A DNA stretch of 64,000 nucleotides from Blasia pusilla (GCA_050084515.1 CM114271.1:16554001-16618000), one strand, 5' to 3'. Counted from the first letter of the stretch, positions 16,058-63,445 are shown. Program-made: numbers and translations. Notes: generated from the sequence alone by a model not told the origin.

Positions 16058-17045
16058 TAAATCTTGCAAGGGGACATCCATCTAGTATCAATATGTGCTC
16101 TGCCATTGGAAACCAATAAATCCCAACTCCAAAACGCTTCAATCAAGTTGGCTCCAATAAATCTTTGAACTCACTCGTCATCGTCCGAGAGATCTTCCAA
16201 TAGTACTGTCGACTTTGCCCTCCCGATTTTTGAAATTGTAGGAAGTGACAATGGTGTCACTATCAATGGTGGCTCTGGAGCTGGAGCAGTTGGCTTTAGA
16301 AGCAAGTTGTATACTCCCACTAGCCTCTCGTAATCCGCCTTTGGCTCTTTGCAAACGTCGAAAAGTTTTGACCTTCCCTCAAGGTAGAGAATGTTTCTGC
16401 CACTCTACTAGGTGTCTCTGATACTCGCCCCTAATAAGCCCACTAAGTCAAAGGCCAAGTCACCCAGCCTAGAGTAGAACTCCATGAGCGTTTGCATCAA
16501 GGAACATGACTTCTCCCTTCCTCCAAGTAAGGGGGTCCCTTCTTGCATGAAGATTCTCGAGGGGGAATTGTAGAGACTATCTAAGTTGTATCCATCGGAG
16601 CATGGATCCACTGGATCCGGGATTTGGAACACCTGGAATTTGTGCTCGGGCCTAACAAAGCAGTAGACAAATGAGTGGTCCATCTGTGAACAAGCAAGTG
16701 GAAAATAATGTCATCAAAAAAAGAAAGGTAGTAGATTGTTGGTCTACTCTCCATATAGTGACACAATGTGTTACTCGTTGATCCGACGGGTTGCTCATTT
16801 GGCTAGACACAATAGCAATCTGTCAGAGTCCGACGGGTTGCTTTTCAAATCAAATAGGAATCTATGGTGATTAGCAAGCCGTTGGAACCGGACAGGTTGC
16901 TCAATAGGCCAGACACAATAGCAACCTGTCGGAGTCCGACGGGTTGCTATACAACTCAAAAAGGACTCTTTGTTGATGAGCAACATGTCGAAACCCGACA
17001 AGTTGGTCATTTTGGTGGACAGAACCGCAACCTATCGGAGTATGA
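16058..17045 (-). mobile_element. Inverted fragment of a related ParB-MTase MULE copy (last MTase exon, palindrome-rich intron, 3' region)
   Basis: 16683-16170 encodes MDHSFVY...GGREKSCSLMQTLMEFYSRLGDLAFDLVGLLGAS..., homologous to 34228-34735 with the same TTCACAG acceptor; six palindrome copies at 16772-17041. Confidence 0.88.
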
Positions 17046-17349
17046 ATGTTTGAATCTGTTTCGTATCAACATAACTATCAACTTCACATAAACGACACAC
17101 TTTAAACTTAATTTTCCGATAATAGTGATCCTCTTGGGGATTGAACTCCATAAATCATCATAAAAAGATAAATTCTTTTAACTCTTGTACATTACACAAC
17201 ATGCCACATTAAACATATTTTGCAACCTACAACACCTTCAATGCCACCTTAGAGCCATGTCCTCACAAGTACACAACTTAAATCTGCTTATATATTAAGT
17301 CCTAGAGTCATTTTTTTTCTATTTCTCTATGACCAAAATGCACACGTTT

Positions 17350-23340: not shown

Positions 23341-24202
23341 TATAAAGCGTTACCAATACATATTTCGGATTAGGAAGTAGGGTCATACTTTATACTTTAT
23401 ATGTGTATGAACTCTCAATTACTTACAGGTAGCAATATATGGACATTTTTGTAGGTATACTATACATAATATCATATTTCTGCCCCAAACTGAATCTGGG
23501 CAGGTTGTTCCTGAGCAATTTTGGCTCAAGTGCGTGTAGGTTAATCGAAAACTACATTGCAGTGGTTGTTTAGGAGCCCACATGTACACAAATGGGGTCC
23601 ATGATGTAGGTTGCAGTGGGGCCATAGAAGTAGGCATTTAGGGTTGCATTTGCAACACTCAAAGTAGTTGCAGGTTTAATTTTTCAAATTTTGTCTTTAC
23701 TTCCGAGCCTTGCCTTGCAATCCTTGCTCTGCATAAGTGATTTATGTTTGAATGGGAAGATAACTACCCTGAGCATTGCTTATATGCTTATATATGTTGA
23801 TGCGAAGGTGTGAGGTGTGGTAAGAGGAGAAGAAGAGAGGAAACTACCTTCAACCGAAATAGATTTATTTTTTTTAAGACAGTTTCATGTGATTTGAAGA
23901 GAGTGTCCGTTGGGTTGAAGAGAGGAATTTTTTGTGTGAATATTTTGGTACTTTTCTGCTCGGTTCTTGAGCACTCCCACCATTTTTTTTTCCTCTTCCA
24001 TATTTTGGCAACTTTTGAGTCCGACGAGTTGCAAATTGCACAAGATTTATAAAATCGTGTGGAATCATAAGTGTGGAAGCAATCATTTTTATCATTCAAA
24101 GTCTAGAAAAAATTTATTATTTGCCCTCGGCTGAATAGAGTTAAGTTCACAGTGAAGATTTTGGAAAAATGAAAGTATAGTCTAAAATCTCATTTTGCAT
24201 CC

Positions 24203-27200
24203 TCAAAGTGGTTTGATTAAAATACTCCTCACTTCTTTGAGGGACACAATCGGTTGGTGGATTCTTACTCCTACCTCTGATTCTCTTAGAATTACAAGCA
24301 ACACATAGTACATGTGCTTACAAGGGAAATACTTTTCGCCATTTGTTTCTCTTTGGATAAAGTTTTCATATGAACACGTGGGAAAGTAACAGGTGTGCAC
24401 CATATACACCTCTGCGACATTTGAATTTACAGTGTTGTTCCTGACCCAATACATCCTTTCTATTCCATCGTCGTTGTTAACATCTTTTGTGGCGATGATC
24501 TCCATTTTTGCCTCTAGAGTTGATGCAATTCGTTTTGCTCTCTCCACTATTGGTCGACACAATCTGTTTCTCTTCACCCCATTTCTAGACTCAAACAGAA
24601 ATAGCGGATTGAGATCATCCATCTTCACCGGGCACATGTTGACGTTAATCTTGGGTTGAATACGAAATGCAAAGGTCTCTGGAATGCAAACATGCTTTGA
24701 ACTTCCTCCGTCTACGAAGTCTAAAATCGGCACTTGTAAGATTGTCCACTTCATCTTGAGTGCAATTCATACCTGCGGCGATGGGCCAAATCGTGGGGAT
24801 ATTCCCCGGAGCTCCAATGGTAGGCGGATATGACTTGCGAAATGTGCAAGATTCATTTGGGCAGAAGAAGTACTTCATTTGATCCCCGGTCCTCTTGAAA
24901 CGATCAAAGGTTTTGAGTGAGTGGTTCATCCTTATGATTCTTATTTAGGAAAGTGTCGATGATCTCCTAATGCCATCAGATCCTCAAGTGGATCCACGCC
25001 GAGGGTTGCTCGAGATATATGCCACCGTTTCAGGTTGCAATCCATCTCCATGACCATTCCATATTGTTGAACCACCCCAACGACCGGATGTTGCAAACTT
25101 CCAAAGAACGGAGGGCTTTTGAAATAAAACATTCATGATTTTGGAGAATTCCGGGGTCCCCGAATACTTGGGCGGCGTAATTTCCTCATCCAAATCAATC
25201 ACCGGATTCGTTCCTCGATGGTGCCTTCACCTACCAAGTCAAGATACTCATTGGTCTCCAAGTCTCGCTCATTTGCTCTACCACCATCTCAGATGGGACG
25301 TCTTGAACGCGCCTATGAATATCCCCACCAATATCGTCTTGCTTGAGGGGAGTTCCTCAAAGGTTGAAGGCTTCCACATAGAGTTTCTCATCACCCGATC
25401 TCATAGCCGCCCTGACATAGAGCTCGTAGATCAAAGGCCCTCTTCCTTTTGTTATGCCTTTTGTGAGGAAGATATGGGATATTGCAGACTGTAGCATTGC
25501 TCTTGCCTGGTCTTGTTGGCATGCCTCCACAAGTGAAATTCTTTGGCATATTTGTGACGACCTCCACGAGGAATGAACACTTTCTGCTCCACTTGTGTTG
25601 GGGTAGAGGGCATTTTCATGAATGTTCAATCCCTGCAACAACGGCACCGTGAGAAGGGAACCAAAATAGCTCTATGAGCAAAGAAAAAAGCTACATGTCG
25701 GAACCCGACGGGTTGCAAGTCGGAGGCATCCCATGAATGACTCTGTAACCCGTTGGTTTCCGACGTGTTGCGACACCCAGGAACCACCTAGTGCAACCCG
25801 TCGGATTTTGACGGATTGCAAGTAAATTTGGCCATGCGACTTGCAACCCGTTCTTTTCCGACTGGTTGCACTCTCAGGCAACCTGTCAACCCGTCTGATT
25901 CCGACTGGTTGCAAGTAAGTTTGGCCGTGCGACTTGCGACCCGTCGGGTTCTGACTAGTTGCAAACTCAGGCAGCCCGTCGATAAGCGACGGTTTGAACA
26001 CTCAGGGAGGCAACCTGTCGCATCCGACAAGTTGCTTGGTTTCTATAGTGCCCATGCTTCTCACCTTTAGCTGCAACTCTTCAAACAATTTTCAGCGAGA
26101 TAAATTATTGAACTCACCTCCCGCATGAAGTTTCCCCATTGTCTCATTCGTACAGTCCACCAACTCAACCAAGAGCATAACTCTTTGTACTTCCCCTCAA
26201 TCGCATGTTTCCTCCACCATCCATGAATTTCTTCTTGGCATTCCATGGCCTGTTTCAAGGTTTTGCTGTCCTTGCAGCGTTGGAGTAGAGTGACATGCTC
26301 CGTCCTCTTATTCTCCTTAATGCAAGATTTGGTGTAGCGAGTCACAGAATGTTGCCAATGGAAAGCATCCGACCTTTCTCTCTCCGGTTGAACCTCCCCA
26401 TCCCAAAACACTTCCCTGATAGCAATCCACCCAGGTTGTGCATTATCCGCCATGAACCCATAAATTTCCAGAGGTAGCCTTTTGTTTTCCTTCACCAGCT
26501 CCAATAAGAGTAACCAACACATCTTCAAACTGCCAACTTCTTCTGCTTTTACTTCACAGACAAATATAGTTTTGAGTCCCTTCTCCACATGGTCATAAAC
26601 GTGAGCATCCATTGTCAACCATCCGTTCAGCACTCTGTAGCAAATATCAAAGCTTACCCAGCTGCCGTAAAGATCTTTCCCTTTCCTCATTCGATCTATA
26701 AGATCGAGACCACTCGACGGACCTGTCGTTGACATTTTGAAGACATAGGCCCTAGATCCTCCGCCTCCCTGGCCCATGAACTGCCATCTCTGAATGAATG
26801 GAAATCTGGAGTTGGCCTTGATTCTGGCAATGGCATCCATTTCGGCCGTCTTTCCATCCAGTACCCGTATTTGACGCAGCAAATTTCGGAAGTATTCAGG
26901 ATCAGCGAGAAATGCGAGATTTTCCCAGAGTTGTTTCTCCTCAGCAGTCTGTGATCTCGCCTTGTCCAAGGATTCCAAGCAGTTGTTCACAAATTTGTGA
27001 TGCTGTTGTAAGTTTGATCACTCCGGGCTTTGAACCCGGAGAGTTTTTGAAGACCTCGGCCACTTTCTTTGCCACATCCTCCTTGATGTGTCTCTGAATT
27101 GCATCGGTCACAAGATGAGTGTGGGAGCCAACATGAATTTCCAGCCTTGTTTACTCTGACATGGAGCCAAAGTCGTGGATAATGAAAAATATTTATGCAG

Positions 27201-28129
27201 GACAAGCTCCAACGCAAAAAGGGGATGCTTGACAATGAGGATATCGATGGCCTCTCGACGGTATGGTGGCATCGACCTCATATGGAGTTTCTCCATTCTT
27301 GGGGGGGAATTGCGACATATTGACCCGCCCGTTGCGCTCTAGATACGGGCATGCTGGACTTCTACACTCCAAGGTTCCAACGCATTGGTGGCGGGAGACA
27401 ATCCAAGGACCATGTGGAATTGAAACACTAGTCTGTTGAAGCCTACACCATCGATGAGAATCAGACTTTTTGTCCATACCCTTCAGGCGTCCTCCATTTT
27501 TCTTTTGAGCAAGAGCAGCAAGTGGAGGCAACTCAAAAATGCAATTACCATCGTACGTGGGCGGCAGCTCGTCGACAAGAATGTGCTTGAACATTTTCAA
27601 GGCTAGAGACGATAGCAAACTATTGCTTGATATTCGCAAGAGGAATGAGTAGGCGGATAGAGGGCCCGGTTGGTGTCCGACCGATCCACTGAGGTAGACA
27701 ATATCGGGAATTTCTTCAGGAAGTACAACATTATAACGAACGTGTGAAGTTGGAGTCAATGCGGACCCTTGAGCTAGGATTTGCAAACGTAGAGCTCAGT
27801 GCAATAGGAAATTCTCAACCATCTACTTGGGAAACAGAGGAATTCAGAGGCAAGCCGTAAACTTTGTATTGACCATTTGCTAGAGGTAGGAGATTCCATA
27901 CTTTACGGTCTACAATCACTGACTGGATTGTCTCACCTATTATGTCCTCTGTACCGTCCATCCTAACATCCTTGGACACAAAGATGGTTCCAATTTGGAG
28001 AAGAAATCGAACTGAGAGAAAAATTTCATCCACAGGTATGAAAGACTCACGAGCTTGCAATCGAACGATTTCTGATTGAGGAAGGGCTGCCAGATGACTG
28101 CCACAAGTGAGCTTCACATAATTATCCAT
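24203..28129 (-). pseudogene. MULE transposase: WRKY/GCM-like Zn DNA-binding domain, DDE core, SWIM finger
   Basis: CVGTLECRSPACPY...HCQASPFCVGACPA...HVGSHTH (GCM/WRKY-like); VSFDICY (D1), FMADNAQ (D2), ERSDAFHW (CxxH position), NTSGAESVHSSW (E), PTCSYENF...CKHMYYV (SWIM). Intron ~25634-26117. Frameshifts and stops. Confidence 0.85.
25690..26036. repeat. Cluster of 8 degenerate 27-bp palindromes in the transposase intron
   Basis: GCAACCCGTCGGA-N-TCCGACGGGTTGC-like copies at ~25690, 25745, 25793, 25843, 25887, 25936, 25971, 26010. Confidence 0.9.
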
Positions 28130-28314
28130 TCCTAGAAGATTCCACTGGGAGGAGACAGAGAATAAGAATGAGGATAAGAATGGGTGGGAATGAGAATGAG
28201 AATGAGAATGTTCAATTTATAGTGAATAGGGACTCAGATTCTCCTCACCTAATTTGACTGACAAGATGAAGTTTGGTAGGTGAGATTGTCTGACATGATG
28301 GATTCAATTCTATT

Positions 28315-28931
28315 GCAACCTGTCGGAGTTCGATGGGTTGCAAAATTTGGGAATCAGAGACGTGGGTTGCGAAGCACCCAGTTCCATTTTTTGTTTCCTT
28401 GTCCCAATGCAAATTGGAAGCCGTCGGAGTCCGTTGGGTTGGTACCCCCTTCATGCCGACCAATGGTCTTTTGAGACAATTTTGCTAGCATCAAACACGA
28501 GACATCGCTTGCATTTGCTAAGGTAACTAATCGATGGGGACTATTATGGGATTGTCCAACTCAGGGTAGACCTTGTGACCCGTCGGATTGCAAGAGGTTG
28601 CCTCAGAACTATCCATTGTCGCATTGTTACCCGAGGGATAGAAAAGAGTGCAACGTGTCTGTAACCGACGAGTTGCCCATGTACCTCGTCTATTACCCCA
28701 AGATGAGGGAAGCGTGCAACCTGTCGGCCTCCGACGGGTTGCGCAAGTGCCTCGCCTTGTTATCCCAAGACGAGGGAAGGGTGCAACCCGTTGGTCTTTG
28801 ACAGGTCGCGTGGGTACCTCGTGTTCTTCCCCCAAGTCGGCGGAGGCGCGCAACGTGTCGGACTCTGACGGGTTGCCAGGATAGCTCGGCTAGGACGGAT
28901 GCCTCCAACCCGTCGGAGACCGTCGAGTTGG
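28315..28931. repeat. Cluster of 8 palindromes in the divergent promoter region (partly 67-bp period)
   Basis: Copies at ~28315, 28417, 28576, 28650, 28716, 28783, 28850, 28905. Confidence 0.9.
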
Positions 28932-29020
28932 TGGTTTTCACGTCGAGACCTCCATAACGGCCGACACGTCGCCGTCGGAATGACGGTGCGACCCAACGGT
29001 CATCCCAACGGCTTGAAAAG

Positions 29021-29027
29021 TATAAAT
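29021..29027 (+). promoter_or_regulatory. Putative TATA box of the MULE accessory gene
   Basis: TATAAAT about 220 bp upstream of ATG 29239, just downstream of a palindrome cluster. Confidence 0.5.
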
Positions 29028-30494
29028 AGGCTAGGGTTTGCTCATTTCAGGTTTTTTGTTTTGCGATCTCGATTGCTCTTCAGCGCAGCAGCGGACCAAA
29101 TACCAAGGGGCGCTTTACACGGCGACTCATCGCGAGACGATTCAAGCGACTCATCAAGGTGACTCATCGAGGCGACTCATCAACGCAACTCATCAAGGCG
29201 ACTCATCGTGCACAGAAAGTAATGTTGTTGTCGAGGAGATGGCATTTTCGGGAATAATGACGAGGAAAAAAACTCAAGCAAGCAAGATTGGGAGCTTCAC
29301 TCCCAAGTCCAAGACTCCTGCGTCACCATCTCCAAGGCCTTGTTCGGCCAATGAGATAAGGCAGCAAGAGATTGAGGAGCGCGATAGGGAAGCGGAGATG
29401 CACATGCATGAGCTTCTTGCAGAACGTGTTAAGGAGGCAATTGAAAAATAGAGCTTAGAGGTTGAGGCATCGCAGGCCTTGAGGAAAAGGATCGCCGAGG
29501 AGAATCGTGAAAAGAAGCGTTTGGACGCGTTGGTGAGGAGAGTAGAATTGGCAAAAGCTCGAAGGGAAAAAGTGATTTCCATTGAAGAAAGCCCGCTCCG
29601 TCCAACCAAAAGTGTTGAGATGCAGGAAATGTCTCCGATGAAGTCCGGGGACACAATCAATATAAAATCGACTGAGGAAACGGGCAAAGTTCAAGTGATG
29701 GACGATGAGGTCATGAGGACCGCTAGCGTGGAGATGGTGGACATCTCTGAAGAAGCAGGAGAGCGGTCTTCCTCGTCTCTTAGCCCTGCGGAAGAAATCA
29801 ACCTCTATCGGATCGACGAGTTTCCAGTGGACTTGCTAGCTGTTGTCCGAGAGCAGTTGGCGGGCCAAGACACCGACCCAATCTTCGAGCGGGTAAGATA
29901 CGATCTTTGTTCTTTGAATTATGTGAAGGCCCATGTTGCAGTTCATTGGCAATTCAGTGTAGTTTATTGAACTTTTCCCGGTTGTGACATGTGGTAAAGC
30001 AGATGGCACTGATGGAGGGCCAGAACGCCCTGAGAATTCCACTTTTCCCATTGCGGACAATGGAGTACGTCCGCGAAATTCAGTCTGACGAGGATATTGC
30101 GAAGCTGAAACAATCGGCAGCGACATCATCCTATGTCGATAGCTTCCCTCCGTTCTATGTTCAGCCTTACGATGAACATGGAACCCAAGCGTTGGTGAAG
30201 GAGGAGGACTTGGAGGCGCTCGACACATTCTGGAGGATGAGAGATCAGGAATTCAGAAGGGCGATTGAGGGGACCGAATTCAGCTGGATGCGGAACCTGT
30301 ATTTCTTCATCTGGGATGGAAACCACATATTCATGGCGTGGACCCAGTTTGCAGAGGAGCGCCAAAACTCATTGGAGGCGCATTTTTGCGTGAAGGCAAT
30401 CATGCTACATCCATACCCTCATCACATGGCGACGGTGGAGATGGCCATGCATGCCATGAACATGTAAGTTTCCTCTTCCTTTATTTTGATTGGT

Positions 30495-31118
30495 GCAAAT
30501 CGTCGGACTCTGACGAGTTGTTTAACTAGTGGTAACAAAACTCGTTGAAGTCCAACGAGTTGCTTGACTGGACACTATTTTTTGGATGTTTTTGGCCGAA
30601 AGCAACTCGTCGGAGTCCGACGAGTTGCTTGACTGGCCGTTGTTTTTAGGATGTTTTTGTCCAAAAGCAACTCGTTGGACTCCGACGAGTTGCTTGACTG
30701 GCCATTGTTTTTAGGATGATTTTGGCTGAAAGCAACTCGTTGGAGTCCGACGAGTTGCTCGACTGGCCGCTGTTTTTGGATGTTTTTGGCCGAAAGCAAC
30801 TCGTCGCACTCCGACGGGTTGCATTCGCTGGCACGGTAAGGTGATCGGAGTAGGGGAGCTTGATTTTTGGCATCAAATTGCAGCTTTACTTGAAATTGCG
30901 CAACCTGTCGGACTCCGACGGGTTGATATGTTCACTTTTCTCGCGGAGAACACTCTCTGAATATAAATTATCGACAACCCGTCGGAGTCCGACGGGTTGA
31001 TACTAGGCAATCACAAATCTGAATGCAATCCGTCGGACTCCAATGGGTTGCAAAATTTAGCTCGTAGCTACCATTCCGACCATGAGGTGTGACGACCTGT
31101 CTGAGTCCGACGGGTTGC
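30495..31118. repeat. Array of 10 palindromes in accessory-gene intron 1 (65-bp tandem units at ~30537-30822)
   Basis: GCAACTCGTCGGAGTCCGACGAGTTGC repeated with near-identical spacers (TTGACTGGCC...TTTTGGCCGAAA), then dispersed copies at ~30900, 30974, 31025, 31092. Confidence 0.92.
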
Positions 31119-31685
31119 AGGAACCCATATAGCTTGCAAAATTTCTTATATTGAGTTTGGATGTGCATGATTGTATTCGAGGGGAATGTCACCCACCACT
31201 AGATCTAGGATTGCGATCGGGTGAAGAAAGTGCTAACAACGCACCCGGCAAAGTACAAGGGGTTCTTAGGCCACGCCCTTAGAAATGAGATGCTGGCAAA
31301 GGGGGCTCAAATAAAATAAAAAAACTTGGGCAAATACATTTATTTTCCAAGATGCAGCCGTGACAATTCTTTGCTCGTCAAAGATAATGGCCGCCAAGAA
31401 GAGCGCTTCATTGGAGCTGGAGCGGAGGGAGAAAGTGTGTGTGTCTGAGCGTGCTAAGTTCATCCAAGCTGCAGTATCTTCAACTACGAAGTACATTGCA
31501 AGCAAGATGCAGCGCTACATAGCCTTTCTCAACCCTGAACTTGGCCCCGATTTCTACAAGGAGCTGAAGGCGATAATCAAGCGCCAGCGGAAGAGGGATG
31601 AAGATCCGCAGGGTCGGATTGGGGAAAAAGTGTCTCTCCAACGATTTTCCTTGTCTAGAATTTCAGAATTTAGGAGAATCCGATT

Positions 31686-32503
31686 GATGAAAATCAATCT
31701 CGAGGGCATAGAGGCTCTAAAAAGAGGCTCCGTGAATGGTCATTCACACCATCCTTCTCGAGAAGTCCATGGTGTCTCTGATCCTGAAAAAAATCTCGTT
31801 CGGAGGAAGCAAACTGGAGAGTGTTGAAGATTTTGAACTTTGGTTGAATGGTCGGACGATGTTCAAGGATCACATCCTCCGCACACCTTGATGAAATTTA
31901 GTCTCGAGGGCATAGAGGCCCAAAAGGGCGGCACACCATCCTCCGGTGTCGAGAAGATCTCCCATGCTCCGTGAATGGTCATTCAGGGACGCGTTGCGGC
32001 TTCTCGAGAAGTCCATGCTCGTGGGTCTCCAAGCGAAGCTGAAAAAAATAGAGCCCGTTCCGGAGGAAGCAAACCTGGAGAGTGTTGAAGATTTTGAACT
32101 TTGGTTGGATGACATGCGGGACAAGCCCATAAAAAACCCAGGCTTCAGGACGATGTTCAAGGATCACATCCTCCCTCAGGCACACCTTGATGAAAATCAG
32201 TCTCGAGGGCATAGAGGCCCAAAAGAGGGCGACACACCATCCTCCGGGTGTCTCTGATCCAGTGATCTCCCACTGGCTCCGTGAATGGTCATTCGGGGAT
32301 GCGTTGCGGCTTCTCGAGAAGTCCATGCTCGTGGGTCTCCAAGCGGAGCTGAAAAAAATAGAGCCCGTTCCGGAGGAAGCAAACCTGGAGAGTGTTGAAG
32401 ATTTTGAACTTTGGTTGGATGACATGCGGGACAAGCCCATAAAAAACCCAGGCTTCAGGACGATGTTCAAGGATCACATCCTCCCTCAGGCACACCTTGA
32501 TGA
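31686..32503 (+). repeat. ~310-bp tandem triplication inside accessory-gene exon 2
   Basis: ~31970-32195 and ~32280-32503 are near-identical (LEKSMLVGLQA...KDHILPQAHLDE); a first copy from 31686 has many small deletions. Confidence 0.9.
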
Positions 32504-33763
32504 AGAAATAGAGGCGAAGAAAAGGGATTTTGCAAAGAAAAAGTGAGATCTTCAGGAGCAGGTGGCCGATGCATCTCGACTAAGAGCTGCCCAACGCATG
32601 GTGTTCAGGTACCTCGTCCATTGTAAGAATGCAGGTTCATGGAGAAAAATACCGGCATCCTACAAATTGTGGGCTTCTCCGCCTGATGGAGTGACATTTT
32701 CCATGTACGACATGGAGATGGCTCAAAGCATGTCCGACTCGGAGGTGGAGAATTGCCCGATCTGGCTGGACTTCAATGACCCTGAGGACATATTCGAGAA
32801 AAATCTACGCGTGCTCTATGATGCAGTGGCCGTAGGTAGGGATGACATCCCCAATTTTGTGCAGCCTGAAGACTTTTTTGAAGGAGATGCGGAGGAGCAA
32901 ACCATCGAGACAGCGGAGTTGGTGTCCAAGGTCGTCGCCGCCAAGGAAAAATCTACACTGGGTCTCAAATCCAAGGCGAGTGGATCGAAGAATTCCGAGG
33001 CCAAGTCTTCCCAAAAGAGGCTGAGAATTCAAGGCGAGAGGCGGAATCGTCCGGGCAAGCGAGGAGAGAGGGTCGGACCAGGTCCTCCACAAAAAAACTC
33101 CACCAGAGTCTGAGGTAATAGAGACCCCAACAAGCCAACCCCAGGCTCGGAAGAAGCGGAAGCGAGAGCTGCCAGGTTTGTCCCAAGGAGCAGATCAGGA
33201 TGTGGAATACACTCCATCATCCTTGGGAAGACATAGAGAAACAATGACCCGGACAAGCGTCATCATTCACTCCACGAATCTTCTGGATGAGCTGAAAAGT
33301 TTCAGTTCCCAAGCGTCGACACCCGCCATCGACAAATTGACAACGCTGGGACGGAAGCTTCAACGAAATGGGCACGCTCCTTGGATGGTCCATGGGGAGG
33401 TTGAGGAGGTGGCGGTGGATCTCCTTATCGCTGATTTGCCCTCAGGGTTGCGCTTGTGGGACGAGAATCCGTCCGACGGTATCCCAGATTGGAATGTCCC
33501 TCTTTCTTATGACCAGATCGCGCTCCTATTTTCCTTTGCAGACGCTTATCTCAGTGACAGGGGCTGTTTCTTGGTTTTGACTAGAGGGAGCGAGGAAGAG
33601 CTCTTCAACCTGTTGTGCGTCAAGAGGTCGCTGAAGTGGAGGACGGCGCAATCGTGGGTCATCAAGAACGAGTACCCACTCCGATCCGCGACAAGTCAAA
33701 TCCGTGTAAGGGCTCTAAATCCATATCCAAATTGTCTTGCTCCGACATGTTGCATCTTTGCAT

Positions 33764-34065
33764 GCAACCCGTCGGATTGTTTGAGGTGGAGACTTCGGTG
33801 GTGCAATTCGTCTGAAAGCGACGGGTTGCAAATTTACCGCAAGTCTCCATTGGGTGAATGCAACCCGTCGGAACTCGACGGGTTGCAAGTGCTTATGCTT
33901 TTCCTTGTGTTTCTGGAATGATGCAACCCATCTGAATGTGACGGGTTGCTCTTAGCCAACCATGGGCTGCTCTAAGCCAGCAACCTGTCGCCTTCCGACG
34001 AGTTGTTCATGGCAAAAAAATCACTAACACTTGTAAAACAACATGTCGGACTCCGATAGGTTGCT
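33764..34065. repeat. Cluster of 6 palindromes in the intron splitting the MTase-like domain
   Basis: Copies at ~33764, 33803, 33860, 33923, 33980, 34040, all within intron 33706-34227. Confidence 0.88.
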
Positions 34066-34804
34066 CCAATGTTAGGACTATAACTAAGTTCTCTGGGGTT
34101 AAGCGAAGTTCTTTGGGAATGAGATGCACATTGTGTCACCATTTTGATAGTATACCTTTCTTGTTGTTGCATATTGAAATTAGCTCTTTCTTGTTGCTGA
34201 CATTTTTTCCAACTTGCTTCTTCACAGATGGACCACTCCTTTGTCTACTATTTTGTAAGGTCCAAGAAAACTTCCAAGTGTTTCAGATCCTCGATCCAGT
34301 GGATCCATGCTCTGATGGGTACAGCTTAGAGAGTTTATACAATTCCCGGGAATTTACATGGAAAATGGTACCCCCTTACTTGGAGGAAGGGAAAAGTCTC
34401 CGGCGTTGATGCAAACGCTCATCGAGCTCTACTCAAGGCGGGGTGACTTGGTGTTCGACTTAGTGGGCCTTTCAGGGGCGAGTATCAGAGGCGCATGGTA
34501 GAGTGCCAAGAACATTCTCTGCCTTGAGGGAGGGCAGGAATTGTTTGACCTTTGCAAAGAGGCAAAGGCAGATTACGATAGGCTAGTTGGGGTGTACAAC
34601 TCTCCTCCGAAGCCGACAGCTCAGGTTCCAGACCCACCATTGGTAGTGACACCATCGTCACTTCCCATGATTCCAAAATTTGGGAGGGCAAGGCGGACAG
34701 TAATTGTGGAAGAGCTCTCGGACGATGACGAGTGAGTTCGAAGAACTCAAGGACCCAGCTTGACTACGGCGTTTTGGAGTAGGGATTTATTTGATGAGGA
34801 GGCA

Positions 34805-35880
34805 GAAGAATTCATAGAATAGATCAAATGTACAGTTTCAAGCTTCCTTTGGATGTAATAAAGGACAAGATTTTTTCAAACGATGATGGTGTTTGTAAAA
34901 GTTTGTTGAATATCTTTTTTGGTCTTGTCGAAGATTCTATCTACTCAACAATTCATATTGGTGTTGGATTGTAAAAGGTTGCAACTTTTCACTTTTTGAC
35001 CATTGCACCTTTTTAACCACTTCTAGGCAACCTGTCAAATTCCGACAGGTTGGCTGCGTGAGTGATCGGACTCTTTCCCTGTTAGTCCAACTTTAAAGGC
35101 ATTTTGGCGGGCTTCTTCACTTTGGCACCTTCCCCTAGTTTCGTCAAACAAGTCTTAGGCTTCCTCTCTTCTCTAAGACGTGTTGGATTCCTACTGCTTG
35201 GTTGAGGACATGATGGTCTCTCCAAGGACGGAGCACATATTGATACTGGATGGGTGTCACCTTGTAGAGCATACAAGATTTACTGCCAAGGAAGGTGGTG
35301 GGACTCAAATCAGGTTACATGGGACCGTTATAGTGTACCAGGGGGATGCCAAGGCTCTCAAATTTGCCAACATTTTCGATCCCCGTCTATAATCGGCCAA
35401 AGGAGCCACTTGTATCCCAAGATATTCCTTTTGTATAGGAACCTAGGAGAGTTAGGAGTAAATTTGTAAATGACGAGGCTGAAGAAATCATAGACTAGAT
35501 CAAATGTACATTTCCAAGCTTCCTTCGAATTTAATAAAGGAAAAGATTTTTTCAAACGATAATGGTGTTTGTAAAAGTTTTATGAATATTTTTTTGGACT
35601 TGTCGATTGTGTTCGTCTAGCAACTCAAAATGTTTATTTTGCAACCCGTCTGATTCCGACGGGTTGCAACTTTTCACTTTTTCACCACTGCAACTTTTTA
35701 ACCATTTCCAAGCAAGCTGTCAGATTTCGACAGGTTGGTTGCTTGAGTGATCGGACTCTTTCCCTATGAGACCAACTTCTGAGGCATTGTGGCGGGCTTC
35801 TTCACTTTTGGCTCGTTCCCCTAGTATTGTCAAACCAATCGTAGGCTTCTTTCTTCTCTAAGACGTGCTGGATTCCTAAA
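34805..35880. repeat. Diverged direct duplication in the MULE 3' region (~34805-35190 vs ~35480-35880), each with palindromes
   Basis: Shared TAGATCAAATGTACA...TTTTCAAACGAT..TGGTGTTTGTAAAAGTTT and GAGTGATCGGACTCTTTCCCT...GGCGGGCTTCTTCACTTT blocks. Confidence 0.8.
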
Positions 35881-36576
35881 GCCTGTCGGATTGCCATTTC
35901 AGATTCCCAACCAGTTGGATCTTCGTGGGTGCAGGGTGGAATGGAATCATTTCTCAAAATCTTTCCTTTGTTATGGTGAACTTGGTTGCAAGGGGTGCAA
36001 GCCATCTAATTTTGATGGGTTGCAAGAGTTGCAATCTGTAAAATTCCGACGGATTGGGAGGGGTGCAGCTTCTCGGTTTCTCAGATTTAGGATCTGAATG
36101 AAGGGACATCAGTTCCTCTTTACTCCAGACAGCTAAAAATCTTTTGGTTTAGTTATCGTCTCTTGTGTTCACATTTCACAAAGTTGGTCTTTATTTGAAC
36201 CTTTCATTGAGATGAGATTGCTACTTCTGGTCATATTATTTGCCAATGGTCCTCCAAAAAATAGTCCTGGGCACAGCTTATTGTAGACTGAGACAAGCAA
36301 TGTGAAAAAACTTAGGCTCACATGGAGAGTGATGGGAAAATGTTTGTAGTGGTGTTATGATGTCTACTAGTTTTTTTCCCTGTGGAAAAAGGAGGTTTCT
36401 TTAGGCCCGAACGTGGACCACTACCTACTCTCTTCTAAAGATTTCATGAACTTGAAAGCAAACAAAAATTTCAAATATGTCAAAAATTTTGAAGAGAGGA
36501 GGCGGATTTGGCCCCTTTTTTTTAAGAGAGACTCTCCTCTCTTCCTCTCTCCTGCCAGAATACGAGCCCCCCGTAG

Positions 36577-45118: not shown

Positions 45119-47843
45119 CTAATTTTTATGTGGTCTCGTATCTACCAAAGGCAAGTGTAAATGAAGAGTATTTTTGTGTATTTCCTTGCTTTCATATTGG
45201 CTAACAAGAGCATCCAAGTCTAGATGCATACATGCATCCGCTTCCAATTCTACCTCCATGTTCTGAAATTTTGATCGCTTAACTCCAATGATTGCCTGCA
45301 AAAATTTATCTACAATCTCTTGAACATCTTCTATGGTAGTTATATGTGATGTTGATGTAGGTGTCGTCAAATGGGACACTTCAGGATAACCAACATCGTC
45401 CATAAACTTCGATTCCACAGCAGTGCCACCTTAGTCCTCTGCATACTTTTGTGTCAGGTTTTCTAACCCACCAGCTTTGCTTCCAAAATGTGTGCTCAGG
45501 AAGGACAACAAGTCGACTTCACTGTGCCCACTCAACAATAAACACTTTATATAACAGGGAAGCAATTTTTAATAGGATGCATTAAAATTGCAAAAAAATA
45601 TATAGGTCATGAATGGGGCTATCAAAGAAAAATTGGTAACATCAACGTAATGATAAGTTTCCCATAAAACAGACCTAATGTTTACAAGTGAAGTCTTTGT
45701 TGGCATGTGAACATGTACAAGCCGCATCTTTCAAGTCATAGTCAATGACATCATGCCAAACGTCCGTCTTTGAGCAACTCTTAACTTGAGCACATTTCCT
45801 CCCATTTAGCATTTTAAATGTAACATGGTTGTCTGGGATATCATTTGCCCTTCGAATAGCCATGAGCATGACTTTCTGTATTGCCTTGTTCTTGACCATA
45901 CCTTCTCGTTTAAAAAATCCCAAGTGCCAAATTTTTTTCTATTTCCCGGTATAACATTTGCACAAGCCATATGAGCTTCCTTGTAGGCTTTGTGGGCATG
46001 CTAGAGGTGAGATGCATTTTGAGGGTGTGGTCCCATCTTTCGATTAGTGCATTGGTGTCTTGATTGGACCGAGCATGCTTACGATAGCCTTTTGCCCAAG
46101 TAACAATCTTTGGATGCCAATAGTATAGATAGTATTTCACAAAATGGCGTTTTGTTCGTGCCCACTTGCGCATGAAATAGTCGGAGGCATTAACAAGATA
46201 TGGGATACAAAACAAACAAAGAATTAGTAACCATCAGATATCTCCTTTAACCTGAGTAATCTCTTCGCACCATGGATTGAAAATAAATGAAAATAGAGTG
46301 ACTAGTACTGATTTTGAACATACCTTCATCGCGTGAGTACATGATACCACCCAAGTCTCTCTTCATATCACCTTTTGTAACTAGACAACCGACCCGTTGG
46401 TGTAGATTCTTTAACCAATTCTTTCTGGCGTGCCATAAACAGAGGTCTATAGGAACATCAGGGAATATTTCTCTGATAATATATTGTTCCTCTTTAGAAT
46501 AGTCAACTATGAAGCATGATGGTGTCCAAGCAAGGCTATCAACCTGGGCACCAGCTCTCCTTATGTAACTATCTGCCCAGTCCTTGATATGGCTCAATGT
46601 CTCCACCAGATCCCGATGTTGATGTCTTTGTAGGATGGCCCATATTAGAGGCAATCCGTTTTGGAACTTGTCAAAACCCAACAAGGTGAATAGCTGATAC
46701 AATGAACATGGAAATACAACTGTTCAGAATTCGGATTGTTCAATGAATAGCTGATACAATGAACTCAAAATTCTAACTATTCGGAATTTAGACAAGTGGT
46801 GCATCGACATCATGGTGACACAAATTCTTTAATGTAGCATAGGTAGTCCAAGAAGAGAATCCTATTATGGATGTTTGGACCTGAATTGACCTCATATGTG
46901 TTCGTACCATGAGTTGCATCCATGGAGATAGCTCCACCGTCACCAAGTAGCAAGAAATTTTGAAGCATCCAAGGTGTGGAAATGACCAGGCTGAAAGGTT
47001 GCCCTGAGCTAGAGATGTCCTCCTTGTAGTGTATGAAATTTGTAGGATGATCTGCAAAACAATTTTGGATTGCAGTAGCATCATCGGTTCCATCATACCC
47101 CCCTTCCCGTCTTCGCATTGAATGTTTGATATTTAGAATATCTTGCAGTTTTAGTATAGCATCCGTGCCCCACGCTGGTTCCTAATTAGGATTCTCTCAA
47201 ATGTGTTCACGAATCCATCTCCTGTGCTCTTTCATTATATTTAAGGAACTCAGGTTGACTCGCAATAAGCGCTCTACAAAGTCCTGGAAATGCGAACTCA
47301 ACTTCGGGGCAACTACTGCGTTTGCAATGTCAGCGGTCTTGTCTAAGTCCCCATAGCATATGTGCCTTGTCTTATCCACATGCTTCGAATGCATATGTCT
47401 TAACATAGCACAATCAAGACGGTCTTTTGAGGTTATAAGGGCAAAATGGAATTGGCATCCATGTTCTTGAGAAGCCCAAGACGTCTACTTTGGCTTTTTG
47501 GCCTACTACCCTTGCCTCCTTTGTGGCGAAGGTTCAAATTAAATACCTCTTCGGGCAAAGAGGTCCAAACGGCCTTCCTATAATCCTGGGGTCCATATGC
47601 ACACCAGTATCGAACGATAACATGTACATGCTCGGATTTGTCTGTCTTAATCTTGCGAAATGTGGTATGGAAATGAGCTCTTTGTTCTTCACCATTAATG
47701 AAGTCTTGAACCCTATCTGAAGGAATCCATGCCTCTTTTCTATCACCATACCAAATCAAGTGTTCATTCAGGAAAGGGCCAGGAAGAGGAATCTGGATTA
47801 CATCACATTGGAATGTACCCAAATACTTGGTGAATTTCACCAT
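45119..47843 (-). pseudogene. Second MULE transposase (different family), DDE plus SWIM, spliced and degenerate
   Basis: ISMDATHGTN (D1), YQLFTLLGFD..NGLP, CFIVD (D2), LCLWH (CxxH), DTNALIERWD (E), CTCSH...TCKH (SWIM). Confidence 0.9.
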
Positions 47844-61048: not shown

Positions 61049-62665
61049 GGGTGGGGACTCGGGGAGAGGTGGTGTCTTCAGGTTATATATAGAAAGAGGA
61101 AAAGAAGTTATTAGAGTTTTTCCTCATTTCACGAGCTCCGAGTGATTGTTTGTGCGGAGAAACTGGAGTCTGGGCAAAGAAGGGATGCAACGCCGGCCAT
61201 TGAGATCGACGGATTGTAAGGGAACACGTAAGGCACGGCAGAACGGCTCTATTGACCGTCCCTGTGCAAGGGGCCCGGAGAGCATATGCCCAGCATTTTC
61301 TAGATTCTCACTCCTTGTCCGGCAGCCGTCGATCGGGACATCGTCGATGGCCTTCTCAGTCGACTGTGGACTTGCGAAGGGCGGATAAGGAAAATCTCAA
61401 CGGAGTGTCTCATGAGGTGAATGAATGAATGACTTGCCATTCGTTCCGTCCGGATGGAAACTCCAGACGGAGCGAATGGCAAACCCATTCATTCCGTCTA
61501 TCAAATGTGGTAGGTTCGCTTGTAGCCAAACGTCAAGCTGACCCATGTTACACATAATAAACTTCTTACACGTCATCTAATTTGGGATGACACGGACGTT
61601 CCTTCTAAAGAGAATTTCTTTTCTTCTTTTCCCAAAGCCATGTTATTTAGGTAATTTCTCTTATATTATGTTAAAAATAATAATGTTTCTTTTTCTTAAG
61701 CCATATTCATTCGTCTTCTTTGGTTGGTACTCATGTTTCAGTGTACAAAGAACATACACCCGGTTGTAGGAGGCTTTCTCCATTAATTCTCCAGTTCCTT
61801 TCTCTCCGACTTGTTCTTGTACGGGTACGAAGGGTTTATTCCAGTTTTTTTCGTCATGTGGGATGTATGTGGTCGAAGAATGGGGCGGACCTCAACGAGT
61901 CGCACAAGATTGGAACTTGGAACGCAACAAGAGTGATCATGGATGAGAACCGAAACGATCCCATCGAGTAAACATCGCGAGGGCATTTCTAAGCGGAGAA
62001 CAATTAAACCCTAAACGGGCACGTCGTATTGGTGCCGTGTATGGCTCGGGGGCCGTCCACTCCACTCCATCGGCACTACAGAACGCCGGAGTCGTGACTT
62101 TATCACTGCAGACCAGACCGTCGTTTTGGCGTTTCCCAGTCGTGCGAGCTCGCGAAGCGAAACGTAGTCGACCTCAGTAATCATCCGATTACTGGGTCCT
62201 CGAATTGGGCAGTACTATTATTATGACGGGAAAGTCGAATTAGGGGTGACTGGCTGGCTCGCTAGCTGTTGCTCTCTGTTGCTTTCGTCGTCCCAGTTGT
62301 CCGGCTGTTGGGAGGAAGAGGGTGGGGGGGTTGGGTCGGGGGCAGTGCGCCGCTAGCGCTTCCTTGGTTTAGAGACTGAGGTGAAGAGAAGAGAAGCGAG
62401 GGCGGCAGGCGAGGCTGCCTTTGAGTGATTCGCCGGCCATCGACAGCGGATGGAGACGGAGGGAGCGGAGGTGTTCGGATGTGTCGATGACCGACGAAGA
62501 GAAGATGTAAAGGATGACTACGGGATCGGGATCTGAGGGCCGATGGACATAGAAGGCTGGTGATTGGTGAGGAGGAGGAGGGGCGGGAGGAATGCTGTAG
62601 AATTGCGCGTGGGAAAAAGAGGAGAAGATCACAGGGGCGCTAGGGGCGTGGAGTGATTTGTGGAA

Positions 62666-63445
62666 ATGGAAATTCCAGAGTGCTTCAAGGCCATGCTGAA
62701 CGATTCGCCATTGTTGTGGAAGTCGGTGGCTATGTTTATGGTAGTGTATTTGTTTGGGTATTGGGTGATTTTCAGGAACTGGAAGGGCAGGCCTCGATAC
62801 GATGCAGCGAGTTGCGGGATATCTCTTGCGCATGGAACGCTTGTGGCTCTTTTGGCAGCGCAGGACATTTTTTCGACGGAATGGAAACTGGACGCGGTTA
62901 ATAGCGATAGGCAGAAGAAGATCATGGAGTACAGCATGGCCTACTTTATTGTGGACTTGATGAACTACATGTACGCCGCTCCGGATGACTTCCTTTTCAT
63001 CGGGCATCACATTGCCACTCTCACGTATATGTTCTCCTGCCGTTATTACACGGGCTATGGTGCTACTTCGGTCATGTGCCTGATAGCGGCCGGTGAGATA
63101 ACTAGTCCTGTGCAAAATGTGTGGACTCTGGCGCGAATGGCCCGGACGGAGTCTCCTTTGGCAAAACGAATTTACATTTCCTTGTCTCCCTTCTTCACCT
63201 TTTACTTTACGCTTGTGCGCGGAGTCTTCGGGCCCTATTTGGTTTATGAGCTCGGGAAATTCTACCTGGTAGGGAAGGCAGATGCCGTGGTGCCAAGGTG
63301 GCTGGCGTATTCGTGGATGTTCAAGATGTCGTTTGCCATTCTTGGGAGCATTGTGTGGGTGTACAAACTTTGGGTTGGGTTGGCCAAATTCTACAGCACG
63401 AAACGGGAGAGGCAAGTCGAAGACGCCACGAAGAAAGCTGCGTAG
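62666..63445 (+). CDS. TLC (TRAM/LAG1/CLN8) domain membrane protein, intronless
   Basis: Intact 259-aa ORF with multiple TM segments; AASCGISLAHGT, YSMAYFIVDL, FIGHH, GEITSPVQNVW, FYFTLVRG motifs. Confidence 0.92.
   Translation: MEIPECFKAMLNDSPLLWKSVAMFMVVYLFGYWVIFRNWKGRPRYDAASCGISLAHGTLVALLAAQDIFSTEWKLDAVNSDRQKKIMEYSMAYFIVDLMNYMYAAPDDFLFIGHHIATLTYMFSCRYYTGYGATSVMCLIAAGEITSPVQNVWTLARMARTESPLAKRIYISLSPFFTFYFTLVRGVFGPYLVYELGKFYLVGKADAVVPRWLAYSWMFKMSFAILGSIVWVYKLWVGLAKFYSTKRERQVEDATKKAA

Follow-up and report, generated by a model that had tools for sequence, protein, structure and literature searches.

The window analysed here, a stretch of 64,000 nucleotides from Blasia pusilla (GCA_050084515.1 CM114271.1:16554001-16618000), holds a plant DNA transposon of a very abundant family. 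The copy is dead, and a 27-bp palindrome recurs in it about 40 times (Table 1). A transposase gene and an accessory gene diverge within the element, and WGS depth of the family reaches ~1250 at ≥90% identity, compared with ~18 in the left flank. The window's copy is a pseudogene, so its own palindrome sites are decaying. The related fragment that the initial annotation had noted at 16.8-17.0 kb, with six palindromes, was recovered as a reverse copy of the element's 3' part; it includes the exon of methylase (MTase) motif I (tblastn of P0103/P0101/P0104 at 16677-16270) with 2 stops, and its array of four full sites (16815-17006) and half-sites at 16782 and 17027, the latter two added by a single-arm scan, matches the 33.8 kb array unit by unit when the two are aligned.

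Table 1 Features of the element and its fragment in the window (positions counted from the first nucleotide).
Feature	Position	Strand	Evidence or remark
Fragment of element 3' part, equivalent to 34186-34791	16115..16727	-	blastn, 81% identity
Palindrome array, 4 full units and 2 half-sites	16782..17047	.	In reverse-oriented fragment of a second element copy
Leftmost palindrome copy, weak, left arm decayed	24007..24034	.	By eye; outside the 41 sites
Transposase exon 3' of the palindromic intron, motif N-T-S-G-A-E-S-V-H-S-S	25483..25638	-	tblastx to L001 1390-1545, 50% identity, E 3.5e-12
8 palindromes, period ~50 bp, 93-bp two-unit repeat; fills transposase intron	25690..26035	.	
Transposase core exons, 2 in-frame stops	26115..27582	-	tblastn of P0001-P0003, 44-47% identity
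8 palindromes, period ~67 bp in core; between divergent transposase and accessory genes	28315..28931	.	
Exon with predicted ParB/Srx-fold domain	30033..30463	+	97 homologues; donor GTAAGT at 30464
10 palindromes, period 65 bp in core; accessory-gene intron 1	30495..31118	.	RNA fold z -11.1
Middle exon blocks, helical region	31315..32924	+	tblastn of P0020, P0016, P0049, P0103
Exon with MTase-like putative motif IV region, D-L-P-S-G-L instead of DPPY	33118..33708	+	tblastn of P0103, P0020, P0104, P0105
6 palindromes and a half-site, spacing 57-63 bp, unrelated spacers; accessory-gene intron 2	33741..34064	.	
Exon with MTase motif I region, one in-frame stop	34382..34636	+	tblastn of P0103/P0101/P0104 over PF01555-matching stretch
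Five dispersed palindromes, 3' region	35027..36057	.	

The palindromic intron of the transposase gene runs from a GTGAGT donor (26117-26112) to an acceptor near 25639. No Pfam family was found for the transposase, PF10551 included, and hhalign against the window's own MULE fragment returned a probability of 0.2. No terminal inverted repeats (TIRs) were found to mark the ends of the element; WGS depth of ~325 persists beyond 36173, and reads mutually agree past 36191. With neither a Pfam match nor a TIR, the earlier description of a "GCM-like" transposase with "degenerate TIRs" found no confirmation. By eye only, Mutator-like transposase motifs can be picked out (FMADN...DAFHW, GAES and a CxC...CxH stretch). 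The element's ORFs gave no Pfam match to an EnSpm-type transposase, a 2OG oxygenase or DUF1985/DUF287, and the accessory homologues likewise matched no Pfam transposase or 2OG family.

The accessory gene is a single gene of ~1200 codons; the initial annotation was right about two introns carrying 10 and 6 palindromes, which belong to this one gene and not to two. The AF2 model of its N-terminal domain reached a pLDDT of 90.9, and the best Foldseek rows were ParB-CDP, Noc, KorB and Srx (best E 9e-3, probability 1.0; none at E ≤0.001). Similarly, VIA gave KorB at Z 8.7 (rmsd 2.2 over 91 residues), PadC at 7.8 and Srx at 7.3; the 8 best chains were all of ParB/Srx type, and only 16 of 48,161 chains reached Z ≥2. 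The N-domain is thus predicted, on its structural model, to have the ParB/Srx alpha-beta fold, although PF02195 (ParB_N) matched neither the window ORF (E up to 10) nor 22 homologues (E up to 0.01); an Atlas lead pointed to a cluster with ParB_N in 11% of its members. Across 70 homologues the consensus is WDGNHR, with G111, N112 and H113 near-invariant; the window copy reads WDGNHI, consistent with its decay. Named homologues of the accessory protein occur in a liverwort and a fern. The middle exons contain an internal duplication of ~540 bp (31727-32194 and 31966-32504, 83%), and the model of homologue P0020 is confident over residues ~130-570, with a helical region following the ParB domain, and falls below pLDDT 50 at the C-terminus. 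The ParB N-domain binds nucleotides and is not a sequence reader; beside it, no HTH or other DNA-reading module was identified, Foldseek of the P0020 model matching the ParB N-domain only. A Pfam search of 15 element ORFs gave no ParA-like ATPase partner, a weak negative given that the copy is dead.

The C-terminus of the accessory protein is N6/N4 DNA-methylase-like, with scores just under the Pfam cut-off: PF01555 matched three of the five long or C-terminal homologues (P0103, 23.7 bits; P0101, 26.2; P0104, 24.8; cut-off 26.7) at E 9e-6 to 5e-5, over profile positions 165-218 of 221 only, and did not match P0102 or P0105. Atlas leads to methylases scored only 0.75-0.79. At the putative motif IV, assigned by our own reading and not by a profile, the window has D-L-P-S-G, while P0020, P0103, P0104 and P0105 have D-(L/M)-P-(S/T)-G; the canonical (D/N/S)PP(Y/F/W) is absent from the aligned stretch in the window and the homologues alike. 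The enzyme may be inactive, because of its sub-cut-off Pfam scores, non-DPPY motif IV and low C-terminal pLDDT. The initial proposal that the element encodes a protein of ParB-MTase type is supported by the KorB match and ParB/Srx best rows at one end of the protein and these PF01555 scores (23.7-26.2 bits) at the other.

The palindrome consensus, GCAACCCGTCGGA-N-TCCGACGGGTTGC, had 16 matches at up to 3 mismatches, compared with 0 in 100 dinucleotide-preserving shuffles, and 41 sites in the window at up to 7 of 26 mismatches, in agreement with the ~40 copies first reported. That threshold leaves out the copy placed initially at the left end (24009), which we located by eye at 24007-24034 as a weaker one. 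The remaining locations were reproduced: eight sites in the transposase intron, eight in the divergent promoter, 10 and 6 in the accessory introns, the latter six at 33764-34064, and five in the 3' region. A scan of the window with single arms (up to 2 mismatches) gave 57 matches, 56 of them within palindrome arrays and the last (33741) adjoining the 33.8 kb array, whereas 50 block shuffles averaged 0.68 and never exceeded 3. None of the 41 sites overlapped homology-supported exon blocks (tblastn), an observation that is statistically weak in itself since there are only ~6 independent arrays and about one third of the element lies in exon blocks. Palindromes occur in the window only in non-coding parts of the element and its fragment, as the initial annotation had claimed. 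No exact match to the core palindrome was found in 185,579 prokaryote genomes.

The palindromes form tandem arrays with periods of ~50-67 bp (TRF periods 50/93, 67, 65 and 106). Spacers are homologous within the 30.5 kb (82-89%) and 28.6 kb (62-79%) arrays, those of the latter containing a second small inverted repeat. At 25.7 kb (91%) and 16.8 kb (75%) the homology is between every other unit, whereas spacers in the 33.8 and 30.9 kb arrays are at shuffle level; the sites at 35027 and 35712 fall in an internal duplication of ~400 bp. By eye, spacers also differ from array to array. The statement that most spacers differ accordingly holds only in part. Comparing the two copies in the window, palindromes are 75% identical, flank 76% and spacers 42%: the spacers are non-homologous between copies, and the dyad is conserved no better than the flank. 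Arrays therefore turn over fast between element copies. The consensus is retained at 851 of 1014 palindrome bases (84%), and its retention across arrays, at 33.8 and 30.9 kb amid spacers no more alike than shuffled sequence, lends support to a recognition-site reading.

Symmetric arm variants had been taken to indicate selection on the dyad. We observed 16 compensatory arm cells, compared with 8.5 ± 2.4 in shuffles; five of these trace to a single CTCGTC/GACGAG change that tandem duplication has copied, and another two fall within an internal duplication, so that ~11 events remain after collapse. One-sided changes number 119, most of them C>T or G>A at CpG. The case for arm covariation is a weak one, and so is the argument for dyad selection built on it. 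Because one-sided changes so outnumber compensatory ones, base identity appears to be kept rather than pairing, which fits protein read-out better than hairpin selection.

A distant relative of the element was found on a metagenome contig of 2078 bp (L001), whose transposase is 43% identical. Its gene has an intron at the same codon, with the splice donor after QWGN(F/Y)(M/I)R(E/L) as in the window, and its downstream exon is homologous to the window's (tblastx, E 3.5e-12). This intron contains three tandem copies of a different palindrome of 26-28 bp, at spacings of 84 and 90 bp; the window's motif is absent from the contig and the contig's motif from the window. On these alignments, the palindrome array appears conserved in place, not in sequence, between the lineages. 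A functional reading gains support from a distant relative having its own tandem palindrome in the homologous intron; since that intron belongs to the transposase gene, the transposase would fit equally well as the reader.

We tentatively propose that the palindromes are lineage-specific cis sites read by the element's own putative ParB-MTase, activating cognate copies only. ParB-parS and F plasmid sopC offer the general model, palindromic sites at a fixed tandem period being read there by a dimeric ParB-family protein, and the predicted ParB/Srx fold of the accessory N-domain is the point of likeness. The element differs in that no ParA partner was seen among the ORFs searched and no HTH was identified; nor would a chromosomal transposon be expected to act in segregation. 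To our knowledge, the palindrome sequence does not resemble parS, sopC or KorB operators.

An alternative that we consider unlikely is that the cysteine-rich N-terminal domain of the transposase binds the palindromes, as internal or subterminal sites for synaptic-complex assembly or for activation of cognate copies. The only feature found conserved between the lineages is the array within an intron of the transposase gene itself, TIRs that might otherwise serve as binding sites were not found, and the mapped region has palindromes close to either outer limit (24007; 35997-36057); most of them, however, are well within the element, in introns and in the region preceding the accessory gene, and with WGS depth continuing beyond 36173 those limits may not be its true ends. 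A dyad of 27 bp points to a symmetric dimer of the kind usual in ParB or HTH proteins and not known for WRKY/GCM-type fingers; Pfam supplied no DNA-binding domain type for the transposase. The AtMu1c transposase, according to a preprint, binds its TIRs and activates cognate copies.

We likewise assign a low probability to functionless arrays, that is, palindromic minisatellites that arise and grow in non-coding DNA through slippage, gene conversion and hairpin-promoted repair, persisting only where exons are left unbroken. The tandem-duplication signature is clear, family copies have gained or lost units (28760>28703 in 84 reads is one case), and many rearrangement junctions fall at palindromes (28742>30898, 47 reads; 30996>25697, 49 reads). 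The near-equal identity of palindromes and flank between copies and the lack of a clear excess of compensatory changes after collapse agree with this, and any tandem repeat would be expected to be confined to non-coding DNA. Against it, the same 27-bp sequence occurs in at least 6 separate arrays with unrelated-looking spacers, and the tandem palindrome in the same intron of the metagenome relative means that neutrality needs repeated independent origins; furthermore, the abundance of the family indicates that the arrays have not prevented its success.

A role as RNA, with intronic hairpins or 24-27 bp duplexes between palindromes affecting splicing or small RNAs (as self-limitation or a trigger of host silencing), is very unlikely: three arrays are intronic, but the 28.3-28.9 kb array is intergenic and no mapped intron contains the 3' copies; for the intron 30464-31130 the folding energy is -303.9 kcal/mol, with long inter-palindrome pairings (shuffles -199 ± 9, z -11.1), a strength automatic for any palindrome array; accessory-sense reads cover 30492-31365 (depth 1-4.6, three runs), yet over the array they carry variants nearly absent from DNA (31017 A>G, 0 of 263 DNA reads) and so point to one odd locus; no Rfam match was found; and, as above, the arms keep sequence and not pairing.

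Published transposons provide closer parallels to a self-encoded reader. In VANDAL21 of Arabidopsis, tandem repeats of the VANC21 motif occupy introns and upstream regions (Hosaka et al. 2017, PMC5735166). The two systems share an accessory protein, element-specific motif repeats in the element's own introns and upstream of the transposase, fast turnover and motifs that differ between lineages; the element described here has such a tandem motif in introns and upstream, turning over between copies. VANDAL21 differs in its motif, the 9-bp non-palindromic YAGTATTAY, and in VANC (DUF1985/DUF287), described there without a ParB or methylase domain; binding and hypomethylation were demonstrated for it, whereas the site role here is read from sequence, and no protein homology was found. 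In red-algal Plavaka elements, tandem inverted-repeat arrays adjoin PAG3, an accessory gene with a ParB domain (bioRxiv 10.1101/2025.02.11.637652); this too is a eukaryotic DNA transposon with a ParB-like protein and inverted-repeat arrays, and on its authors' proposal the protein would bind to the element that encodes it and modify that element. In the preprint's account, the fusion partner of ParB is a 2OG oxygenase, a separate SET-domain protein (PAG2) carries the N6-methylase, and the transposase is of EnSpm/Plavaka type; here, ParB is fused to a methylase-like domain, the transposase has no Pfam family, and arrays lie in the introns of both genes as well as between them. Sola1-1_Ec32 of the brown alga Ectocarpus encodes a ParB-like and DNA-methyltransferase accessory protein of 1104 aa (PMC12477816), and resembles our element in the domain pair, similar protein size, transcription opposite to the transposase, giant DNA transposon format and the idea of self-modification; its transposase is of Sola1 type, and "palindrom" occurs 0 times in the main text of that article.

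The idea of a self-encoded ParB-type protein acting on its own element is thus already in print for red and brown algal transposons; its combination with arrays is, in the accounts cited, so far noted only in algal transposons. For the element in Blasia pusilla, we infer a comparable arrangement. Tandem duplication would have built up the palindromes within its promoter and introns, and their likeliest reader would be the accessory protein of ~1200 residues, with its predicted ParB/Srx and N6/N4-methylase-like domains, acting as a dimer. It may dock on the arrays as ParB does on parS or sopC, and, once docked, could mark or remodel the element's own DNA or chromatin, either by methylation or by shielding it from silencing. 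The outcome would be an activation limited to cognate copies.

The 27-bp palindrome described in the initial annotation was confirmed, and its interpretation was supported in part. The consensus, GCAACCCGTCGGA-N-TCCGACGGGTTGC, matched the window 16 times at ≤3 mismatches (0 matches in 100 shuffles), and a looser threshold of ≤7 mismatches in 26 positions revealed 41 sites, listed in the table with a weaker copy outside this set. A single-arm scan of the 64-kb window at ≤2 mismatches returned 57 matches, whereas 0.68 were expected from shuffles; 56 of these lay within arrays, and the remaining one (33741) touches an array. The rest of the window is transposon-rich eukaryotic DNA, and the motif was absent from all of its Ty3, copia, LINE and MULE fragments, so that the claim that other elements lack it holds within the 64 kb. 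An exact scan of prokaryote genomes for the palindrome core gave 0 matches. A separate, ordinary MULE transposase fragment (46250–46723, minus strand; PF10551, E 1.3e-7) carries no palindromes and is unrelated to the element, and one ORF alone, at 62657–63442 and encoding a TLC (TRAM/LAG1/CLN8) domain, is a likely host gene.

Palindrome sites and accessory-gene exon blocks in the window
Feature	Position	Strand	Basis
Palindrome array, 4 sites	16815–17006		≤7/26 mismatches
Weaker palindrome copy	24007		outside the 41-site set
Palindrome array, 8 sites	25690–26035		≤7/26 mismatches
Palindrome array, 8 sites	28315–28931		≤7/26 mismatches
Accessory-gene exon blocks	30033–30461, 31315–31761, 32163–32924, 33118–33708, 34382–34636	+	homologue matches
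Palindrome array, 10 sites	30495–31118		≤7/26 mismatches
Palindrome array, 6 sites	33764–34064		≤7/26 mismatches
Palindromes, 5 sites	35027–36057		≤7/26 mismatches

The copies form tandem arrays (TRF periods of 50/93, 67, 65 and 106 bp), an arrangement that adds to the earlier description. Spacers were 82–89% identical inside the 30.5 kb array and 62–79% inside the 28.6 kb array, and alternate-unit spacers were homologous in the 25.7 kb array (91%) and in that at 16.8 kb (75%). Inside the 33.8 and 30.9 kb arrays, spacer similarity was at shuffle level. Between arrays, spacers appeared unrelated. Independent insertion of the palindromes as mini-elements was rejected, as no flanking target duplications were visible by eye and spacers are homologous in several arrays. 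At 28650–28850, the spacer of each 67-bp unit holds a second small inverted repeat, CCTCGTC..N..GACGAGG, which reuses the CTCGTC/GACGAG core of the variant arms.

Over 39 palindrome copies, the consensus was retained at 851 of 1014 bases, best at positions 2–4 (CAA) and 8–9 (GT), and substitutions were mostly C>T or G>A at two CpGs. Arm pairs comprised 366 with both members consensus, 119 changed on one side, 16 with compensatory changes and 6 altered on both sides asymmetrically; right-arm shuffling gave 8.5 ± 2.4 compensatory cells, with ≥16 in 27 of 5000 shuffles. Five of the 16 cells represent one C6>T pair shared by five adjacent units of the array with the 65-bp period, and two further cells fall within the internal duplication 34794–35193/35470–35878, so that about 11 independent compensatory events remain, several of which are CpG transitions that recur easily. 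Set against 119 one-sided changes, these events lend little to the earlier argument that symmetric arm variants reflect selection on dyad symmetry; base sequence is kept rather than pairing.

We compared two copies of the array directly, the fragment at 16.1–17.0 kb being a reverse copy of 33.8–34.8 kb (81% over 613 columns). Four of its palindromes align unit for unit with the 33.8 kb array at 75% identity (81/108), and the same alignment gave 76% for the flank (97/127) and 42%, with 15 gap columns, for the spacers (35/83). In these two copies, the palindromes are thus no better kept than neutral DNA, and the spacers have been replaced, indicating array turnover around a constant motif.

Abundance was assessed from a sample of roughly one in 100 raw WGS reads of run X12. 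Summed depth at ≥90% identity was ~1250 in the transposase core, ~18 in the left flank and 158–292 in array bins, and 95 of 37,687 DNA reads were ≥99% alike; these values indicate that the family is very abundant and that the window copy has diverged. Depth stayed near 325 past 36173 and reads agreed mutually beyond 36191, so the right limit initially assigned is not the end of the element. Repeat search, blastn and blastn-short found no TIRs, and the strand-switch joint 23834/36532 showed only a 15-nt 93% match (E 0.42), its 23.8 kb side being purine-rich by eye. The WGS joints included unit gains and many array-to-array junctions at palindromes, such as 28742>30898 (47 reads) and 30996>25697 (49 reads), which suggests that inter-array recombination produced deletion derivatives, or that mapping is ambiguous where the 27 bp are shared. 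Further array-joining or strand-switching joints at palindromes were seen at 30925/28965 and 35983/36049. A skip of 431–476 bp at 34744–35221 was present in DNA as well as RNA reads, and its ends are not GT..AG; it represents a deletion carried by some copies and not an intron. Internal duplications were also observed in the accessory gene (31727–32504, ~540 bp, 83%) and the 3' region (34794–35878, ~400 bp, 82%); the palindrome at 35641 has a duplicate near 34975 that retains only the right-arm end.

The minus-strand transposase matched three homologues (P0001–P0003, 660–742 aa) over 27582–26115 at 44–47% identity. No Pfam family was found for these homologues, and MULE-like and SWIM-like motifs were recognized by eye only; aligning the transposase profile with the MULE ORF of the window by hhalign yielded a probability of 0.2. 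The 25.7 kb array fills the transposase intron (donor GTGAGT at 26117, acceptor near 25639). The window's copy is dead: the transposase contains two in-frame stops, a further stop falls between 29451 and 29452, and another lies in 34382–34636. Three RNA runs contained 0 reads ≥99% alike (among 261, 374 and 313), and none of the 15 joints listed, beyond which there were 252 others, was a splice across an intron with palindromes. In the transposase exon at 26119–26274 (minus strand), RNA-read variants in three runs were nearly missing from DNA reads (26135 C>T in 40/52 RNA reads versus 7/1194 DNA reads), indicating that the expressed locus is one rare family relative, possibly a domesticated transposase gene.

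On the plus strand, two homologues of 1191–1207 aa (P0020 and P0103) matched window blocks in order, revealing one accessory gene where the initial annotation had two. Its N-terminal domain has 97 homologues, with the motif WDGNHR, by full HMMER search; word-indexed protein searches with the ParB-like and MTase-like ORFs gave no match. The domain model (pLDDT 90.9) matched exclusively ParB/Srx proteins, with VIA Z scores of 8.7 for KorB, 7.8 for PadC, 7.3 for Srx and 6.3 for pNOB8 ParB-N, among others, and Foldseek top rows of ParB-CDP, Noc and KorB, none at E ≤0.001. For the C-terminal domain, PF01555 (N6_N4_Mtase) was detected slightly under cut-off in three of five homologues, and the presumed motif IV is D(L/M)P(S/T)G in place of DPPY; in the full-length P0020 model, the C-terminal third had pLDDT <50 and Foldseek gave ParB rows only. 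Pfam returned no family for 15 element ORFs or for 22 accessory homologues, and at E up to 10 four ORFs yielded only a meaningless AnfG_VnfG row (E 0.088). PDB sequence searches returned chance-level rows only. The name ParB-MTase is thus fair, but catalytic activity is doubtful. The named homologues of this protein occur in a liverwort and a fern. The donor GTAAGT at 30464 precedes the start of the 30.5–31.1 kb array by 31 nt, the exons carrying motifs IV and I flank the 33.8 kb array, and the 28.3–28.9 kb array separates the divergent genes. At 30050–30084, 34–53 RNA reads per run matched only 35 bp, followed by unrelated sequence on both sides; this part of the ParB-domain exon resembles a piece of a well-expressed transcript elsewhere.

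Transposase relatives numbered 0 in viral contigs and 0 in prokaryote genome contigs, and metagenome contigs yielded a single one, L001 (2078 bp), whose transposase is 43% identical to the window's. Its donor GTAATG follows QWGNYIRL, the same residues as the window's QWGNFMRE, and the next exon is homologous (L001 1390–1545 versus window 25638–25483; 50% identity, E 3.5e-12). In the L001 intron, another palindrome, TATTGCTAGCGCC/GGCGCTAGCAATA, is present three times at spacings of 84 and 90 bp, and one copy extends to perfect 29-nt arms; the window palindrome is absent from L001 and the L001 palindrome from the window. With the same intron and a different palindrome, the place is conserved and the motif replaced, a pattern that neutral repeats would hardly explain and that looks like co-evolving protein–site pairs, whichever protein reads them. 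This lineage-conserved array sits in the transposase gene, which speaks for the transposase itself as palindrome reader, an alternative we consider unlikely. Functionless palindromic minisatellites, to which we give a similarly small chance, would fit the array dynamics but not the L001 result. An RNA role is very improbable: intron RNA is predicted to fold strongly (z −11.1), but one array is intergenic and pairing-preserving change is lacking, and Rfam returned no family.

Our preferred reading, held tentatively and with somewhat less than even confidence, is that the palindromes are self-recognition sites, which the ParB-MTase-like protein would read in its own element and then mark or shield that element. 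The consensus centre, GA-N-TC, is retained in 15 of 39 copies; inner positions 11–13 are among the least conserved, the rest of the element shows no GANTC enrichment, and the L001 palindrome lacks it. We regard GANTC as a selected core only as a lead. According to a Bostrychia preprint, red-algal Plavaka elements carry tandem inverted-repeat arrays beside a ParB-2OG accessory gene, with self-binding proposed (bioRxiv 10.1101/2025.02.11.637652), an Ectocarpus Sola1 element encodes a ParB plus DNA-MTase accessory protein (PMC12477816), and VANDAL21/VANC is the proven functional analogue (PMC5735166, PMC10398659). In the full texts searched, which take in a minority of subscription journals, we found no such elements or arrays described in land plants. 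A bolder proposal, which we consider unlikely, is that a land-plant transposon family took over ParB/parS logic of the bacterial type: a ParB clamp, gated by nucleotide and carrying a fused DNA adenine or N4-cytosine methylase-like domain, would load on promoter and intron arrays, spread across the element, and write or protect a 'self' mark through which host silencing is overcome, while protein and palindrome would change together between lineages so that each family activates its own copies only. In this proposal, the central GA-N-TC could be the methylated site.

Transposon self-recognition and escape from silencing are understood in very few cases, chief among them VANC of Arabidopsis. 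The element described here is very abundant and combines dense, readily recognized candidate docking sites with a candidate bacterial-type reader-writer protein, and its distant relative L001 keeps the arrangement with the motif swapped. If the protein is programmable by its palindrome, it would be a potential sequence-directed epigenome tool. The idea of such self-recognition, raised so far for algal transposons only, would extend to a family with liverwort and fern relatives.
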